From Terriglobia bacterium (lineage in GTDB: Bacteria; Acidobacteriota; Terriglobia; Acidiferrales; UBA7541), in NCBI GenBank assembly GCA_963695545.1, contig OY968796.1:192001-256000 (forward strand): 64,000 nucleotides of DNA, given 5' to 3'. Shown one piece after another: positions 17,938 through 24,654 of this stretch. A program made the position numbers and the translations under genes. The notes below the pieces were generated by a model, which searched no databases, was not told the DNA's origin, and saw only the letters and a program-made list of their open reading frames with translations. The stretch's first letter is position 1, and every line of letters begins with the position of its first letter.

Positions 17938-18684
17938 CTAAGCCGTCGTGCCGGTGACGGCGGCCACCGCCGTGTGCGTTGCGAGAAACGCGAGCGTCAA
18001 AGGCCACGCCTCGGCCGCGGCCAAAGCGTTGTAGCTCGGTCGCGCGTCGCAAAAGAATCCGTGATCGGCGTCGGAAAATTCCACGTTGACGAAACTCTTT
18101 CCCGCCGCACGCAGCGCGTCGGTCACTGAGCGCACCACGTCGGGACCGAGATGCTTGTCGCGCCCGCCCCAATTCAACAGCACCGGCGCGCGCAGCTCGC
18201 TCACGCGATCGAGCAGCCCCGGACGCTGCGGGCTCGGCGCGATCCCGCCTCCGTAAAAAGAAATCGCGCACGCAACCGGCAACGTTAGCGCGGCGAGAAA
18301 TGCCACGAACCCTCCCATGCAAAATCCCACCGCCGCGATCGGCAACTTGCCGGCGCCGTTCGCCGCGAGCCAACCGTGCGCCGCGCGCAAGTCCGCTTCC
18401 ACCTGCGGATGCCGCAGTGCCTGCACGTGCGGCATTACCGAAGGAAAATCGTCGTAGCGCCCCTCGAACCCACTCGCCGTGCGATGAAATAATTCCGGCG
18501 CGATCGCCGCGTAGCCCTGCCGCGCGAATCGCTCGGTAACGTCCCGAATGTGCCCATTCACGCCAAACGCTTCCTGCCCGACAATCAAACCCGGATAATG
18601 GCCCACCGCAGGCCGCGCCACGTACGCGTGCATCGTCGTGCCGTCGTCAACGCTCAAATCCACGTACTCCGTGCGAATTTCCAT
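17938..18684 (-). CDS. Dienelactone hydrolase family protein
   Basis: QEAFGVN, nucleophile motif GFCMGG, ADHGFFCDAR. Confidence 0.92.
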   Translation of the reverse strand: MEIRTEYVDLSVDDGTTMHAYVARPAVGHYPGLIVGQEAFGVNGHIRDVTERFARQGYAAIAPELFHRTASGFEGRYDDFPSVMPHVQALRHPQVEADLRAAHGWLAANGAGKLPIAAVGFCMGGFVAFLAALTLPVACAISFYGGGIAPSPQRPGLLDRVSELRAPVLLNWGGRDKHLGPDVVRSVTDALRAAGKSFVNVEFSDADHGFFCDARPSYNALAAAEAWPLTLAFLATHTAVAAVTGTTA

Positions 18685-18763
18685 GAGTCCTTCTCCCGGT
18701 TACGACATCGAAATGATATCACCGGCGGGCTTTGCCGTCCCCGGCCGCCGCGGTTAAAAGGCT

Positions 18764-18791
18764 TTGAGAAATCTCGGCGGTATGGGATACT
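18764..18791 (+). promoter_or_regulatory. Putative sigma70 promoter of the Cys-leader / sat operon
   Basis: TTGAGA (18764-69), 16 bp, TGG-GATACT extended -10 (18783-91), 10 nt before the leader ATG. Confidence 0.5.
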
Positions 18792-18801
18792 GCCCTTGGA
18801 C

Positions 18802-18924
18802 ATGAAGGCCCAAATCCAGAAGACCACAATCTGCTGCTGCGACGCGACGTGCTGCTGTTGCGCGTGTTGTTGTGCAGTTTGTTGTTGTACGCCCGCGTCT
18901 TCTGGGTGGATCCTGACGAGCTAG
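18802..18924 (+). CDS. Cysteine-rich leader peptide (40 aa, 13 Cys)
   Basis: MKAQIQKTTICCCDATCCCCACCCAVCCCTPASSGWILTS*; lies directly before a terminator and the sulfate assimilation genes. Confidence 0.85.
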   Translation: MKAQIQKTTICCCDATCCCCACCCAVCCCTPASSGWILTS

Positions 18925-18950
18925 AACCACAACAGCTCAATCGCAGTCAG

Positions 18951-18995
18951 AGCCCACCGCCAGAAGACGACCTGGCAGGTGGGTTTTTTGTTTTT
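18951..18995 (+). terminator. Attenuator terminator in the sat leader
   Basis: AGCCCACC-GCCAG / CTGGC-A-GGTGGGTT hairpin then TTTTGTTTTT, about 35 nt before the sat ATG. Confidence 0.88.
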
Positions 18996-19028
18996 ACGAG
19001 CAAGTTTTTCGACCCAGGAGAGCCCTTG

Positions 19029-20231
19029 ATGACCGCTGCCACCGAGACATCGAACATCGCCGCGCATGGCGGCAAGCTGGTCAATCGCGTCATTGCGCCC
19101 GAAGCGCGCCAAGAAGCCCGCGCCCGCGCCGCATCGCTGCGCGCCGTGCCCATCGGCGCTCGCGAGGCAAGTGAACTCCTGCTGATGGCGACCGGCGCGT
19201 TCAGTCCGCTCGAAGGTTTTCAAACCAAAGCCGCCGCGCAATCCGTGGTCGATAAAATGTCGCTCCCCGACGGCACACTCTGGCCGCTGCCCATCCTCTT
19301 GCATCTCGCGCCTGCCGAAGCCAACGACGTGCGCGTCGGCGAACGCGTGGCGCTCACGCTCGATGGCGAACCGCTGGCCACGCTCGACGTCGAAGATCGC
19401 TTCACCGTGCCGCGCGAAGAATGGGCCCCGAAAATTTTCGGCACGAGCGATGCCGCGCACCCCGGTGTTGCGGCGCTGAACAACGCGGGCGAAATCGCGC
19501 TCGGCGGAAAAATCGAGTGGCTCGGCGAGCCAACCCTCCCCGGACTCCCCGTGCAATGGCGCACGCCCACGGAAACGCGCGCCGAAATCAGATCGCGCGG
19601 CTGGTCCACCGTGGCCGGATTCCAAACCCGCAATCCCGTGCATCGCGCGCACGAACACGTTCTGCGCATCGCGCTCGAAGTCACCGACGGCCTGCTGCTG
19701 CATCCGCTTGTCGGCGAAACGCGCGCCGAGGATATTCCCGCCGACATCCGCATGCGCTGCTATCAAGCGCTGCTCGACAATTACCTTCCGCAAAAATACG
19801 TGATGTTCACCGTGCTGCCAGCCTTCATGCGCTATGCCGGTCCGCGCGAAGCCATTTTTCACGCGCTGGTGCGCAAGAATTTCGGATGCACCCACTTTTT
19901 AGTCGGCCGCGATCACGCCGGCGTCGGCGGCTACTACGGCCCCTACGACGCGCACAAATTGGTGCGCTCGGTGGCTGGACGCGGCCTCGGTATCCAGCCG
20001 ATCTTTTTCGACGAAGTTTTTTATTGCAATCGCTGCGGCTCGATGGCCAGCCGCAAAACCTGCGCGCATCCCGACGACGCGCATCTCAGCCTGAGCGGCA
20101 CCGAAGTGCGCCGCCGCCTGCGCGAAGGTTTGCCTCTGCCCGTCGAGTTCACTCGTCCCGAAGTCGCGGCCGTGTTGTCGGAAGCATTCCGCGAAACCAC
20201 CGAAGCCGGCCAGGAGACACGACGTGGTTGA
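19029..20231 (+). CDS. sat: Sulfate adenylyltransferase (ATP sulfurylase)
   Basis: HGGKLVNR, FQTRNPVHRAHE, MRYAGPREA, VGRDHAG, LSGTEVR; AGGAG RBS. Confidence 0.96.
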   Translation: MTAATETSNIAAHGGKLVNRVIAPEARQEARARAASLRAVPIGAREASELLLMATGAFSPLEGFQTKAAAQSVVDKMSLPDGTLWPLPILLHLAPAEANDVRVGERVALTLDGEPLATLDVEDRFTVPREEWAPKIFGTSDAAHPGVAALNNAGEIALGGKIEWLGEPTLPGLPVQWRTPTETRAEIRSRGWSTVAGFQTRNPVHRAHEHVLRIALEVTDGLLLHPLVGETRAEDIPADIRMRCYQALLDNYLPQKYVMFTVLPAFMRYAGPREAIFHALVRKNFGCTHFLVGRDHAGVGGYYGPYDAHKLVRSVAGRGLGIQPIFFDEVFYCNRCGSMASRKTCAHPDDAHLSLSGTEVRRRLREGLPLPVEFTRPEVAAVLSEAFRETTEAGQETRRG

Positions 20232-20994
20232 AATTCTACTTGGTCTCGTCGGCGGGATTCTTGTCGGCGCAACCGGCTCGGGCTTCGGCACGGTGATTAC
20301 GCCCGTGCTCTTGCTGCTGGGCTACCGTCCGGGCGTGGCCATCGGAACCACGCTGGGCGTGCTCGTGGCCACGAAATTCGTCGGCACCGTCACCCATCAT
20401 CAAATGGGCCACTGGCCGCGCCAGCACGTCTGGCTCTTGCTGGCTGGCGGCGTGGGCGGCGCGCTCGTCGCCGGTTTCGCCGCGACTGCCTGGTTGCCCG
20501 CGATGCACGATGGAAATAAATTGCTCGAGCGTTTCGTCGGAGCCGCCCTGCTCGGTCTCGCTGCATTTATTTTTGGACAAGAACTATGGAGGCGATACGG
20601 CCAGGAGCCACTCCTGCCCGATGCGATTCCCAAGGACCGCGGCGGCCCCATGACTCTTTTCGCCGTCGGCATTGGCACGGGCGCGGCGGTCACACTCACC
20701 GCGGCAGGTTCCGGCAGCGTTCTCGTGCCTGCGCTCGCGCTGGTCACGAATTGGAGCACCGCACAATTGGCCGCGGCCAGTAACTTATTCGGCTGGGTTG
20801 TGGGTGCGATCGGAGTTCTTTTGTTTTCGCACGCCGGCGCGTTCGCCTGGCCGCTGTTCGCAAAGGTCTTGATCGGAACGCTGCCGGGAATTTACTTCGG
20901 TGCGCTGGCTTCGCGCCACATCAAGCGCGGCTGGTTGCTCCGCGGCGTGGCGTTGATCGCGGTGATTCTAGGAGTTCGACTGATTTTCCGTTAA
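20224..20994 (+). CDS. TauE/SafE (TSUP) family sulfur-anion transporter
   Basis: Multi-TM with two repeats VGATGSGFG / VTLTAAGSGS; overlaps the sat stop. Confidence 0.82.
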   Translation: MVEILLGLVGGILVGATGSGFGTVITPVLLLLGYRPGVAIGTTLGVLVATKFVGTVTHHQMGHWPRQHVWLLLAGGVGGALVAGFAATAWLPAMHDGNKLLERFVGAALLGLAAFIFGQELWRRYGQEPLLPDAIPKDRGGPMTLFAVGIGTGAAVTLTAAGSGSVLVPALALVTNWSTAQLAAASNLFGWVVGAIGVLLFSHAGAFAWPLFAKVLIGTLPGIYFGALASRHIKRGWLLRGVALIAVILGVRLIFR

Positions 20995-21034: not shown

Positions 21035-21730
21035 ATGGATACGCTCCAGCAGGAAGCCGTAGCTCAGCAGCAAGCGGCCGAATCGTGGAATGCGGCCGAA
21101 CTCATCAAGTGGGGACTTGAGCGATTTGGCTCGACGCTCGGAATCGCCTCGAGCTTCGGCGCCGAAGACGTCGTCTTGGTCGAGCTCGCGGCGCGCGCCG
21201 GAATTCCCTATCGCGTCTTCACCCTGGACACCGATTTTCTTTTTCCCGAAACCTACACGCTGATCGAAGGCACGGAGAAGAAGTACGGCATCCACATCGA
21301 GCGCGCTCGTCCGCTGCTCACGCCCGATGAACAGGTCGCCAAGCACGGCGAAGCACTTTGGTCCCGCGAACCAAACCTGTGTTGCTCGATCCGCAAAGTC
21401 GAGCCGCTCAAGAAATCTCTCTCCGGCTTTCAGGCCTGGATCACCGGCATTCGCCGCGATCAAACCCCGCAGCGCGCCAACGCCAAGAAGGTCGATTGGG
21501 ACGCCGGCTTCGGCCTCGTGAAAATTAATCCGCTCGCCGATTGGACTTCCGATCAGGTTTGGGATTTCATTCGCGAGAACAAAATTCCCTACAACGCGCT
21601 CCACGACAATCATTACCCGAGCATCGGCTGCACCTATTGCACGCGCCAGGTTATGCCCGGCGAAGATCCGCGCGCGGGCCGCTGGGCCGGTTTCGCGAAG
21701 ACCGAGTGCGGTCTGCACGCGAAAGAATAG
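21035..21730 (+). CDS. cysH: APS/PAPS reductase (Fe-S type CysH)
   Basis: SSFGAED, LDTDFLFPET, CCSIRKVEPL, YPSIGCTYCT, C-terminal KTECGLH; CC plus CxxC indicates the 4Fe-4S APS-reductase type. Confidence 0.95.
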   Translation: MDTLQQEAVAQQQAAESWNAAELIKWGLERFGSTLGIASSFGAEDVVLVELAARAGIPYRVFTLDTDFLFPETYTLIEGTEKKYGIHIERARPLLTPDEQVAKHGEALWSREPNLCCSIRKVEPLKKSLSGFQAWITGIRRDQTPQRANAKKVDWDAGFGLVKINPLADWTSDQVWDFIRENKIPYNALHDNHYPSIGCTYCTRQVMPGEDPRAGRWAGFAKTECGLHAKE

Positions 21731-21835: not shown

Positions 21836-22705
21836 ATGCCGCCTCGTGACCTGCCCCTCGCCGGCTTCAACGGCTTGACCGTGCTCGCGCTCGAAAGCCG
21901 CCGCGCGCCCGAAACTGCCAAACTCATCTCGGCTCACGGAGGCCGACCCATCGTCGCGCCCGCGCTGCGCGAAATTCCGCTCGCTTCAAATGTAAAAGCT
22001 CTGGAATTTGTCGACGCGCTGATCGATGGACAATTTGACATGACCATTCTTCTCACCGGCGTCGGTACGCGCGCGCTCGTCGGCATCGCCGAAAGCGCCG
22101 GCAAGCGCGAACCATTTCTTGCGGCGCTGCGCCGCGTCACGATTGTCGCGCGCGGTCCGAAACCCCTCGCGGTCCTGCGTGAACTAAATATTCCCGCGAG
22201 CGTCGCCGCGCCGGAACCGAACACTTGGCGCGAACTTCTGGCCGCGCTCGATGCAGCGGCCGCGCAATTTCCCGTTCGCGGTCGCCGCGTTGCCGTGCAG
22301 GAATACGGCGTATCGAATCCCGAGCTCCTCGCAGCGCTCGCCGAGCGCGGCGCCGAAGTCACGCCCGTACCCGTTTATCAATGGGCGCTGCCGGAAAATC
22401 TCGAGCCTCTTCGCGCCGCAATTTCCGCCATCGGCCGCGACGAAATCGATGTCGTGCTATTCACGACGAGCGTCCAGGTGGACCACATCTTTGAAGTCGC
22501 CGCCCAAATGAACGCGGTACACGCGCTCCGGCGCGGCCTCGCGCGCACTGTGATCGCGTCAATCGGACCAACCACGACCGAGGCGCTCCTCCGTCACGAT
22601 TTGACGCCAGATCTTGAGCCCTCGCACCCCAAACTCGGCGTCTTAGTCGCAGAGGCCGCGGACCAAAGCCCCGCCCTGCTCGCACCGAAACGCGATCTTC
22701 CATAG
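21836..22705 (+). CDS. hemD: Uroporphyrinogen-III synthase (HemD) family protein
   Basis: LESRRA, LTGVG, ARGPKP, VAVQEYG, VPVYQW, FTTSVQV, SIGPTT. Confidence 0.8.
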   Translation: MPPRDLPLAGFNGLTVLALESRRAPETAKLISAHGGRPIVAPALREIPLASNVKALEFVDALIDGQFDMTILLTGVGTRALVGIAESAGKREPFLAALRRVTIVARGPKPLAVLRELNIPASVAAPEPNTWRELLAALDAAAAQFPVRGRRVAVQEYGVSNPELLAALAERGAEVTPVPVYQWALPENLEPLRAAISAIGRDEIDVVLFTTSVQVDHIFEVAAQMNAVHALRRGLARTVIASIGPTTTEALLRHDLTPDLEPSHPKLGVLVAEAADQSPALLAPKRDLP

Positions 22706-22833
22706 CAATCCAGCCTTCATAAACGAATGATTAAAGGAGGGTTAATCCCCGCGGCAGTAGGCTTCAAAATTCCGGTTAGATGCAACGAAGACTTGAATTG
22801 GACACTTTTTCCACAGCCCGGCTAAAATTGTAC

Positions 22834-23655
22834 ATGGACACCACCGCAGTGACCCCCATTGAAGTACAAGGTGCAGTTCAACCCGAAATCCTAACCATAG
22901 ACTTCGATTTCTTACTCGAGATCACCAGCCGCATCGCCGCCGCCGATGCTGTCGACAAAGTGCTCGGGCGCGTGGTGGATTTTGTTTCCACGCTGGTGAA
23001 ATGCGATTCCTGTTTTATCTACATCCTGGAAGGCACTGACCTGGTGCTGCGTGCCTCGAAAAATCCGCATCCGGATATTATCGGCCGACTGCGTCTTTCG
23101 GTCGGCCAGGGCATCACCGGCTGGGTCGCCGAGCACAGAGAACCCGTGACCGTCGCGCGGCACGCCTCAAAAGATCCGCGCTTCAAAGTGTTCCACGAGC
23201 TGCCGGAAGATAGCTTTGAGGCGTTTCTCTCGGTTCCAGTGCTCTGCCGCGGACGTCTGGTCGGCGTCATAAACATCCAGCACAAACAGCCTCACCATCA
23301 CAGCAAGCGGCAGATCCAATTGATTTCTACGATCGGCTTTCTGGTCGGCGCGGAAATCGAAATGGCGCGCCTCGAAGGCGAAAATTCCGAATTGAACGAG
23401 CAGCTCGAGACGCGCAAAGTTGTCGAGCGCGCCAAGGGAATTCTCCAGCGCGAACTTCGCATCACCGAGGAAGAGGCTTATCTTTCGCTGCGCAAACAGA
23501 GCCGCCAGCGGCGCATGCCCATGAAGGAAATCGCCGCGGCCATCGTCTTGAGCGACGAAGTGCAGCGGGGCAGAAGTCCCGTGGCGAACGCTCGACCGGT
23601 TCGCGCCGAAAACGAGCCTGGCACGCGCCGCCCGAGCGGCGTACACCCGTCGTGA
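22834..23655 (+). CDS. GAF plus ANTAR RNA-binding regulator
   Basis: GAF (GQGITGWVAE, DPRFK, LSVPV..VGVINIQ) followed by ANTAR LETRKVVERAKGILQ..EEEAY..LRKQS..MKEIAAAI. Confidence 0.92.
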   Translation: MDTTAVTPIEVQGAVQPEILTIDFDFLLEITSRIAAADAVDKVLGRVVDFVSTLVKCDSCFIYILEGTDLVLRASKNPHPDIIGRLRLSVGQGITGWVAEHREPVTVARHASKDPRFKVFHELPEDSFEAFLSVPVLCRGRLVGVINIQHKQPHHHSKRQIQLISTIGFLVGAEIEMARLEGENSELNEQLETRKVVERAKGILQRELRITEEEAYLSLRKQSRQRRMPMKEIAAAIVLSDEVQRGRSPVANARPVRAENEPGTRRPSGVHPS

Positions 23656-23700
23656 AATTCTAAATTCGCGAACGGCTGGCTTGCGATTCTGAAAGGCCGC

Positions 23701-24654
23701 TTAGGACTCTGACAAACTGATGTTTCGCTCGGCGGCGCTTGCGTCGTAAGGATTCTCGGAAGTCTCTTCGGCGAAGTCCCCGGCCACTTCGCCCGAAAAC
23801 TGTTCGGCAAATTGCAGTTCGGCGCGGCTCTCGAACGCGGCAGCGGCCGCCAGCGCAATTTCCGGTGCCTCCGCGATTCCGGCCCTGGCCCCGGCCTTCT
23901 CCACAGAAGCCCAATCGCGCGCGGCCATCGCGCGGTCTGCTGCGACGGCGCCAATTACCAGCAGAGCCGGCGCGCCTAGCGTCGGCGCAAGCGCCACTTC
24001 TCCGAGCGTCATCCGCGCAACTTTCTGTTCGCGCCGCGACGCGCAAGAAATCACCGCGCACGGCGTATCCGGAGAAAGCCCGCCGTCGACAAGCTCCTCG
24101 ACGCGCCCGGCGACGTTCGGCCCCGGCATGTACACCGCCAGCGTCGTGTCCTCATCCGCCAGATGCGCCCATCCAGCGCCGGATTTCTCGCGCGTGTGAT
24201 GATTGCTCACCAGAATCAACTTCGATGCCAGGCGCCGGTCCGTCAGCGCGACTTGCGCCACCGCCGCCGCGCCCAGCGCCGCTGTCACGCCCGGCACGAT
24301 CTCAAATTCGATTCCCGCGTGCGCGAGCGCATCCATTTCTTCGCCCGCGCGGCCGAAAATCAGCGGATCCCCGCCCTTCAGGCGCACCACGGCCAACCCC
24401 TGGCGCGCATAATCCACCAGGCGCCGCTCGATTTCCGATTGAGTAATCGATTCCTTGCCGCAGCGCTTGCCTACGTTCTGCACCCGCGCCCCGGCCGGGG
24501 CCAGCGCCAGAATCTCGAGCGGCACAAGATCGTCGTGCAAAATCGCGTCCGCCACGCGCAACAGGCGCGCCGCCTTCAGCGTCAGCAATTCGGGATCGCC
24601 GGGTCCCGCGCCGATCAAATACACCTTGCCGGGAATCACATATCCGTGCCTCAA
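23701..24654 (-). CDS. cobA: Uroporphyrinogen-III C-methyltransferase (CysG C-terminal / CobA)
   Basis: VYLIGAGPGDPELLTLKA, VGKRCG, VRLKGGDPLIFGR, VPGVTA; acidic C-terminal extension. Confidence 0.93.
   Translation of the reverse strand: MRHGYVIPGKVYLIGAGPGDPELLTLKAARLLRVADAILHDDLVPLEILALAPAGARVQNVGKRCGKESITQSEIERRLVDYARQGLAVVRLKGGDPLIFGRAGEEMDALAHAGIEFEIVPGVTAALGAAAVAQVALTDRRLASKLILVSNHHTREKSGAGWAHLADEDTTLAVYMPGPNVAGRVEELVDGGLSPDTPCAVISCASRREQKVARMTLGEVALAPTLGAPALLVIGAVAADRAMAARDWASVEKAGARAGIAEAPEIALAAAAAFESRAELQFAEQFSGEVAGDFAEETSENPYDASAAERNISLSES

Follow-up and report, generated by a model that had tools for sequence, protein, structure and literature searches.

A putative cysteine-sensing attenuator in front of sat-tauE-cysH in a member of the Acidobacteriota, and related leaders before other amino-acid operons

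In the window (i.e., the whole stretch of 64,000 nt of DNA analysed here), the genes sat, tauE and cysH follow a short reading frame with runs of cysteine codons and a U-tailed hairpin, which raises the question whether this region makes transcription of the three genes dependent on the supply of cysteine. Judged from sequence comparison and folding, the leader is very probably a classical ribosome-mediated transcription attenuator that senses charged tRNA-Cys. The first-pass annotation had read the region by the logic of the trp and his attenuators, with Cys-tRNA as the signal, and this reading is supported by the conservation of the leader, by covariation of the helices 2:3 and 3:4, by a constant distance from the last Cys codon, and by a match between leader codons and downstream pathway.

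Classical leader-peptide transcription attenuators are represented in E. coli by trpL, hisL, thrL, leuL, pheL, and ilvL; to our knowledge, textbooks do not name cysteine among the amino acids to which terminator-type leader attenuators respond. The mechanism as such is textbook, and what is new is the combination of amino acid and output, for sulfate assimilation and for the Acidobacteriota. The locus constitutes a complete, covarying, and directly testable Cys example on sulfate assimilation, and its host phylum is abundant in soil, with a gene regulation that is barely described.

Organization of the leader region

The features of the locus are the following (coordinates, strand, description):

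18764..18791, +, sigma-70-type promoter-like site of putative function, with -35 TTGAGA and extended -10 TGnGATACT
18802-18924, +, leader ORF of 40 codons, 13 of them Cys, without Shine-Dalgarno sequence
18816..18824, +, segment 1, pairs with segment 2; candidate anti-antiterminator or pause helix
18832..18888, +, putative sensor, four Cys runs, the final two all UGU
18896..18909, +, segment 2, 5' arm of the antiterminator; begins 7 nt past the last Cys codon and covaries with segment 3
18913..18950, +, inner helices (18913-22 pairs with 18934-38 and 18946-50), able to form in either state
18954..18969, +, segment 3, 3' arm of the antiterminator and at the same time 5' arm and loop of the terminator
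18952..18995, +, predicted intrinsic terminator: 12-bp hairpin 18952-18984 with one bulge, U tract 18984-18995
19029..20231, +, sat, sulfate adenylyltransferase (PF01747, PF14306, and NF003166 above cut-off)
20224..20994, +, TauE/SafE family membrane protein (PF01925)
21035..21730, +, cysH, (P)APS reductase (PF01507, NF002537, TIGR00434)

The 40-codon frame and its cysteine codons, arranged in runs of 3+4+3+3 at 18832-18888, were recovered as previously annotated, and the frame translates into MKAQIQKTTICCCDATCCCCACCCAVCCCTPASSGWILTS. Neither a candidate in the protein collection nor a Pfam or NCBIfam match was found for this peptide. Paired Cys triplets situated 1-4 codons apart occur three times in the 4.16-Mb genome, two of these occurrences being in this leader, which is also the only such Cys leader found in the genome. 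Another candidate, C1:1889626, was rejected, as it lies inside a protease gene, in another frame, and before that gene's own terminator. The fold of the leader has a z-score of -3.2, with 1 of 200 shuffles equally good.

Concerning the codons used, UGU makes up 73 of the 78 codons of the last Cys run in 26 leaders and 110 of 144 last-run Cys codons in the family-wide set; for comparison, it accounts for 791 of 4026 Cys codons in long ORFs of the window's genome and for 20 of 142 in the adjacent sat genes. Since the single tRNA-Cys of the window's genome carries the anticodon GCA, UGU is decoded by wobble, and slower reading of UGU in the last Cys run may sharpen a stall of the ribosome.

The sole promoter-like site in 18300-19300 (shuffles: 0.2) ends at 18791 and is separated from the leader ATG by 10 nt. 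The -10 element, earlier described as plausible and about 10 nt before the ATG, is present as an extended -10, and it is found at exactly this distance in 8 of the 10 closest leaders. The spacing together with the absent Shine-Dalgarno sequence suggests a 5' leader of only about 2-4 nt, i.e., a nearly leaderless start; a genome-wide scan for a leaderless-promoter peak in the window's genome was flat. A 209-nt contig of depth 5 from a public RNA-library run is identical to 18810-19017 and gives a weak hint that the leader is transcribed, DNA possibly contributing and the run belonging to a single study; the contig extends 22 nt beyond the U tract, so that it shows no stop there, and contigs in any case do not reveal RNA ends. 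The same run contains 0.09 of the words and gave one contig, with nothing on sat, tauE, or cysH; as the run is small and was found by means of this stretch, this does not bear on their expression.

Between U tract and sat ATG 33 nt are situated, with a Shine-Dalgarno-like AGGAG at 19016-19020; the closest named relative of the encoded Sat is from Candidatus Acidiferrales (87% identity). As had been anticipated for gene callers, which would miss the leader or extend sat over it, a mechanical ORF caller stretches sat upstream to 18849. The leader type also flags small ORFs that are missed by gene callers or merged into sat.

Exclusive helices and their relation to the ribosome

The 9-mer at 18816 is repeated at 18960, and its complement is found at 18897, so that, as previously proposed, one 9-mer and its complement define mutually exclusive pairings, with segments 1, 2, and 3 at the positions given above. 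Folding of 18890-18975 yields an antiterminator of 10+4 bp with a 2-nt bulge plus two inner helices. Of the former description, the 14-bp helix 2:3 with its bulge and the existence of the inner helices are retained, whereas the inner helices form in both states and therefore drop out as a part of the switch. Folding of 18951-18997 reproduces the U-tailed terminator that had been placed at 18951-95, as a 12-bp hairpin (-22.4 kcal/mol) followed by U6-G-U5; a simple terminator scan with loop and bulge rules did not list it, whereas folding finds the hairpin. Pairing of the UGU runs with an ACAAC stretch after the stop codon, seen in folds of the window, was discarded, as this stretch is not conserved.

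The core of helix 2:3 is paired in 92.7% of cells in 10 close leaders, with 7 double-change cells (exchanges of C-G to U-A and of G-C to U-A or U-G) and 0 of 500 shuffles as high, and in 89.2% in 16 leaders, with 9 double-change cells and 4 of 500 shuffles as high; the terminator helix 3:4 is paired in 89.5% in the 16 leaders, with 5 double-change cells and a covariation score above 500 of 500 shuffles, all these counts stemming from related sequences and a few events, so that the shuffle control overstates them. Helix 1:2 is paired in 95.5% of cells in 10 close relatives, with one-sided changes only and no double change. The covariation that the annotation had put forward for checking in all three helices is found for 2:3 and 3:4; 1:2 is conserved without compensatory change. 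In the 16 leaders of the window's type, the distance from the start to the CCAG core of segment 1 is 14 nt in 12, and that from the last Cys codon to the core of segment 2 is 13 nt in 13. Here segment 1 is anchored to the start and segment 2 to the last Cys codon, while the intervening tract stretches freely.

The antiterminator and terminator states of 18893-18992 have computed energies of -31.9 and -31.8 kcal/mol, respectively, with a refolding barrier of around 20 kcal/mol; equal energies and a high barrier are as expected for a kinetic switch that would be set by the helix formed first. When a ribosome footprint was placed on the RNA with segment 4 hidden, 2:3 pairing amounted to 0.85-0.94 with the A site on Cys codons up to the last one or two, and to 0.00 with the ribosome on codons 31-38. 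Over 24 leaders, the mean for 2:3 was 0.79-0.87 before the last Cys, 0.61 at the last Cys, and at most 0.03 from four codons after it. With segment 4 likewise hidden, 2:3 reached 0.94 at equilibrium without a ribosome and 0.77-0.94 when the ribosome stood on the stop codon. Because 2:3 wins in both of these situations, termination would need either timing or kinetic capture of segment 2 by segment 1. Helix 1:2 is weak (-11.5 kcal/mol), loses to 2:3 while segment 4 is hidden, and is about even with it at full length; furthermore, a ribosome on Cys runs 2-4 leaves segment 1 uncovered, unlike in the textbook trp picture. Folding under footprints thus agrees with the earlier proposal in that a stall permits 2:3 and coverage of segment 2 prevents it, whereas the role of 1:2 is less clear than had been described.

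For start, translation, stalling, termination, and response to cysteine, we infer the following course. Transcription would start a few bases before the leader AUG. With scarce Cys-tRNA, the ribosome would linger on the Cys runs and leave segment 2 free ahead of it, and segment 2 would pair with segment 3 as the latter leaves RNA polymerase; the helix would block the terminator kinetically, such that sat-tauE-cysH is transcribed. With plentiful Cys, the ribosome would run across segment 2 (codons 30-38) during synthesis of segments 3 and 4, the terminator would form, and transcription would stop near 18990. As segment 2 emerges behind the ribosome, it is probably recaptured by segment 1, with the GUGG toehold still covered.

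Distribution of the leader and codon content of a shared cassette

The gene sat is present in 27 of the 61 genomes searched. A conserved Cys-rich ORF upstream of sat in relatives, which the annotation had put forward for checking, is indeed present: such an ORF with the same terminator directly precedes sat in all five same-genus genomes that possess sat, and among 80 named genome loci it heads the sat operon in 6 of the 8 belonging to Acidobacteriota. The other 72 named sat loci (mostly Bacillota and Chloroflexota) contained no convincing leader, two weak hits far from sat being counted as chance. The leader stands at the head of a longer operon, sulfite reductase-sat(-tauE-cysH), in four loci. 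Across 27 leaders, the number of Cys codons varies between 4 and 16, and the best duplex with the 5' arm of the terminator starts 3-10 nt past the last Cys run in 23 and elsewhere in 4. The distance from terminator to sat match ranges from 38 to 159 nt among leaders directly before sat.

A pattern blind to genes (three Cys codons 80-110 nt before the 3' arm of a terminator) was found in 47 of 401 genomes of the phylum, compared with 7 for the reversed control. A structure filter equally blind to the downstream gene was passed by 21 of 51 distinct loci (the window's own excluded), 15 of which precede sat, cysH/cysD, a sulfite/nitrite reductase, or a cysK-like gene, one a 1-Cys peroxiredoxin, one a DUF4202 gene, and four genes without Pfam match; among the 30 loci that failed, three precede sulfur enzymes. 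L009 and L027 possess a Cys ORF and a terminator and show no clear antiterminator.

A second type of Cys leader before sat (L006, L032, L049, L066, L129, L132, L144, L159, and L173) is distinguished by its terminator sequence and mostly has a single Cys run; L132 shows a mismatch in the terminator arm, and the other eight were aligned and stand outside the pair counts given above. In L027 (G012:C28), the Cys leader is intact and is followed by an in-frame fusion of sat codons 1-63 with the latter half of cysH, which reflects either a deletion or an assembly artefact.

A search with the leader DNA yielded matches in 92 of 201 genomes of the family, mostly with the terminator alone and without a Cys codon in the match. 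From these 135 matches, 5 already counted were excluded and 25 (mostly the weakest) were not included, and 4 of the resulting 105 were dropped as no U tract was located, such that 101 loci remained. At each locus, the 14 codons before segment 2 were read in the frame set by the segment-2 core, not by composition, and the downstream genes were classified by Pfam.

At sulfur-type loci, at least three Cys codons are found in 58 of 64 cases and at least three Thr codons in none; five of the six misses have a Cys-rich ORF in another frame. The genes behind these 64 leaders are sat (5), PAPS reductase/CysD (13), sulfite/nitrite reductase (13), rhodanese (19), siroheme synthase (7), TauE (4), and solute-binding proteins (3, one of them confirmed as sulfate-binding). 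At aspartate-family loci (aspartate kinase 21, asd 1, ArgE/DapE family 1), 21 of 23 leaders have at least three Thr codons and 21 of 23 are without Cys. The two loci before acetolactate synthase have 6 and 8 Ile/Val/Leu codons and no Cys, and the two Lys-richest leaders, L247 and L317, precede operons with dapA and dapD. Nine of the remaining 12 loci are Cys-rich. Several types occur within one genome, e.g., Cys, Thr, and Ilv in G023 and Cys, Thr, and Lys in G465.

Leaders with Thr/Ile/Met codons and the window's antiterminator/terminator sequence are situated before aspartate kinase or asd, and those with Ile/Val codons before acetolactate synthase (L245, L253-L261, L268-L272, L294, L296, L303, L318, L322, L324, L326, and L335, then L252 and L254, Ile/Val loci included). 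L247 (G465:C7 near 140321) and L317 (G027:C4 near 130800) are candidate lysine attenuators, with ArgE/DapE-family, dapB-like, dapA, and dapD genes in the operons (L351, L352); the leader of L247 holds Cys and Lys codons together.

A tree built on the cassette (102 rows, 104 columns; 6 of the 101 loci omitted for uncertain anchoring, 7 sat-type leaders added) places 18 Thr and 2 Ilv forms in one well-supported group (100/98) and 4 Thr forms elsewhere; the cassette offers too few positions for a root or an order of events. As the Thr and Ilv forms cluster, independent switches of specificity would be few, about 3-5. We lean towards the view that the family possesses one portable antiterminator/terminator cassette that was copied before several operons and re-specified by the codons upstream of it: Cys for a multi-locus sulfur 'ribulon' (sat, cysD/H, sulfite reductase, sulfate-binding protein, rhodanese, siroheme synthase), Thr/Ile/Met for aspartate kinase, Ile/Val for acetolactate synthase, and Lys for the dap operon, with L247 resembling a sensor caught in conversion. 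The window's leader would then constitute the Cys form, almost leaderless and tuned by wobble UGU. Such a shared cassette would offer natural swap experiments on the change of specificity as well as a compact part for amino-acid sensors.

Further Cys-rich leaders with terminators (L206, L210, L211, L213) are situated before a gene of the 1-Cys peroxiredoxin type (AhpC/TSA). Proteins of this type are induced by sulfate starvation in Pseudomonas. Other Cys leaders (L201, L202, L203, L225) precede an ATP-grasp-like gene without Pfam match at 1e-5; in L225, a sequence resembling luciferase-like monooxygenases (by eye) follows, possibly forming an organosulfur-utilisation operon. Cys leaders are also found before a DUF4202 gene (L235) and, in L265, L336, L348, L320, and L289, before a TonB-receptor-like gene, putative porins (Porin_5), an NMT1-like binding protein, and an unassigned porin-like gene; the genes behind these six leaders are candidates for sulfur uptake.

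Alternative readings, related systems, and neighbouring loci

The peptide could instead be the product of a stand-alone, metallothionein-like mini-gene with a constitutive terminator, sat being reached by leakage or from another promoter. Such a gene would fit the 13 Cys among 40 residues and the strong predicted terminator directly past the stop codon; however, the Cys tract varies between 4 and 16 codons with indels, the rest of the peptide is poorly kept and without match to Pfam or NCBIfam families, and what is kept are the nucleotides of segment 2, for which TCT, a rare Ser codon in this genome (6.5%), is used. Covariation of 2:3, the 33 nt to the sat ATG with no second promoter-like site found, and the Cys-free leaders that the same cassette bears before Thr and Ilv genes speak against it as well, and we regard it as barely conceivable. 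Somewhat less improbable, and still very unlikely, is translational attenuation in the mycobacterial style, in which a stall frees the Shine-Dalgarno sequence of sat and the hairpin serves processing or stability. The sole poly-Cys leader tested so far acts in this way according to the available text of that study (10.1101/834739), whereas the present leaders keep a U tract after the hairpin, the terminator-sat distance varies as described above, and no helix with the start region of sat is conserved in the alignments.

The hairpin might also be a terminator run by a protein antiterminator or by a small-molecule riboswitch, the Cys ORF being secondary. A GAF-ANTAR gene (22780-23655) is situated 3.8 kb downstream on the same strand, and an ANTAR-domain gene is likewise found in the closest relative, L028. 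ANTAR-target motifs consist of two tandem hairpins with six-base loops that overlap a terminator, and no tandem hexaloop hairpins are present in the leader (by the G1/G4 loop rule); moreover, neither ANTAR nor hemD was found in the available flanks of L111-L114, which keep the leader. Concerning a riboswitch, 18500-19200 has no Rfam match at E up to 10, and eight related loci have none at gathering score. Both variants leave the matching of codons and pathways unexplained, and their probability is very small. Equally improbable is an attenuator for general translation stress or for a sulfur-dependent state of tRNA, with slow UGU wobble as a generic brake: the strong UGU bias in the last run and the Met codons beside Cys runs in several leaders would agree with it, whereas codon identity tracking the downstream pathway on the same cassette points to amino-acid specificity. 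Attenuation by a ribosome that senses Cys-tRNA remains the preferred reading.

With classical attenuators the leader shares a short ORF in which codons for the pathway's amino acid occur in runs, alternative helices 2:3 and 3:4 with a candidate helix 1:2, the antiterminator being exclusive and covarying, a predicted U-tailed terminator before the first gene, a ribosome geometry as computed above, and a codon match that holds over 89 classified loci. It differs from them in that Cys is sensed, the start seems almost leaderless, the regulatory codons come after segment 1, segment 2 is part of the ORF, and no Rfam family matches. Cys-specific T-boxes and S-box riboswitches of Firmicutes work without a leader ORF, by direct binding of tRNA or SAM; premature termination of sulfur amino-acid genes is common to them and to the present locus, which, by contrast, possesses a leader ORF and lacks an Rfam match.

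A similar system in the available text of Brewer et al. 2021 (PMC8632094) is uORFC-8-2, a predicted Cys-codon uORF with U-tailed terminator before cysS, in Rhodobacterales only, for which ribosome-mediated attenuation was proposed. In that text, uORFC-8-2 has two tandem Cys codons near codon 14-15, mostly UGC, and no antiterminator is described, whereas the present type has 4-16 Cys codons (13 in the window), a UGU-rich last run, a covarying antiterminator, and sulfate uptake and reduction genes downstream, and belongs to Acidobacteriota; by description, the two are set apart. No cysS was found among the 101 + 50 downstream proteins scanned.

For mycobacteria, the accessible part of Canestrari et al. 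(10.1101/834739) describes leaderless poly-Cys short ORFs, a 'Cys ribulon', and translational control, the mechanism at other loci being left open there, and PMC13236596, in the portion available, likewise ascribes the Cys case in mycobacteria to translational control. Cys leader peptides of Actinobacteria have no conserved terminator hairpins according to the text consulted of Seliverstov et al. 2005 (PMC1262725). As in these groups (within the same portions of the sources), a poly-Cys short ORF at the 5' end is the first ORF of sulfur operons and several occur per genome; in the mycobacterial case tested a Shine-Dalgarno sequence is hidden, whereas the output here is a predicted intrinsic terminator. 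In the Corynebacterium ilvBNC operon, a three-hairpin attenuator is described (PMC11857589, in part). Almost no attenuators predicted in Acidobacteria had a function in the accessible text of PMC2965389, and the main texts of PMC11109978 and PMC4833913 mention no cysteine leader. In the openly accessible main texts searched, neither a terminator-type Cys attenuator on sulfate assimilation or in Acidobacteriota nor a shared cassette was found. The first-pass annotation knew of no Cys attenuator with intrinsic terminator on sat in this lineage, which agrees with the texts searched; the combination of a Cys leader with a terminator as such is already predicted, for cysS of Rhodobacterales, in the cited part of PMC8632094.

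Downstream of cysH (window 21836-24654), HemD-like and GAF-ANTAR genes follow, with cysG/cobA converging on them, and they may belong to siroheme or nitrogen regulation; the HemD-like/GAF-ANTAR neighbourhood is kept in L028. Apart from the sat operon, the window's genome contains a sulfite/nitrite-reductase-like gene (G000:C1:3169230-3171482, about 750 aa, with a C-terminal extension). A search for a Cys leader with terminator was negative at this sulfite-reductase-like gene and at the two cysK-like genes elsewhere in the genome; L334, a Cys leader of the same-genus genome G005, precedes a sulfite/nitrite-reductase-like gene.

Automatic scans for leaders of other amino acids in the window's genome were insensitive and missed both of the leaders that were found by inspection, so that their negative outcome does not argue for absence. 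One of these, Thr/Ile-rich and followed by a terminator, is situated before asd-aspartate kinase (G000:C1:164957-165055, -); the other, Leu/Val-rich and also with a terminator, lies before an ilvD-like gene upstream of ilvB (about C1:422200-422400, +). Their terminator sequences differ from that of the Cys leader. Given these leaders in the same genome, the organism appears to use ribosome-coupled attenuation more widely.
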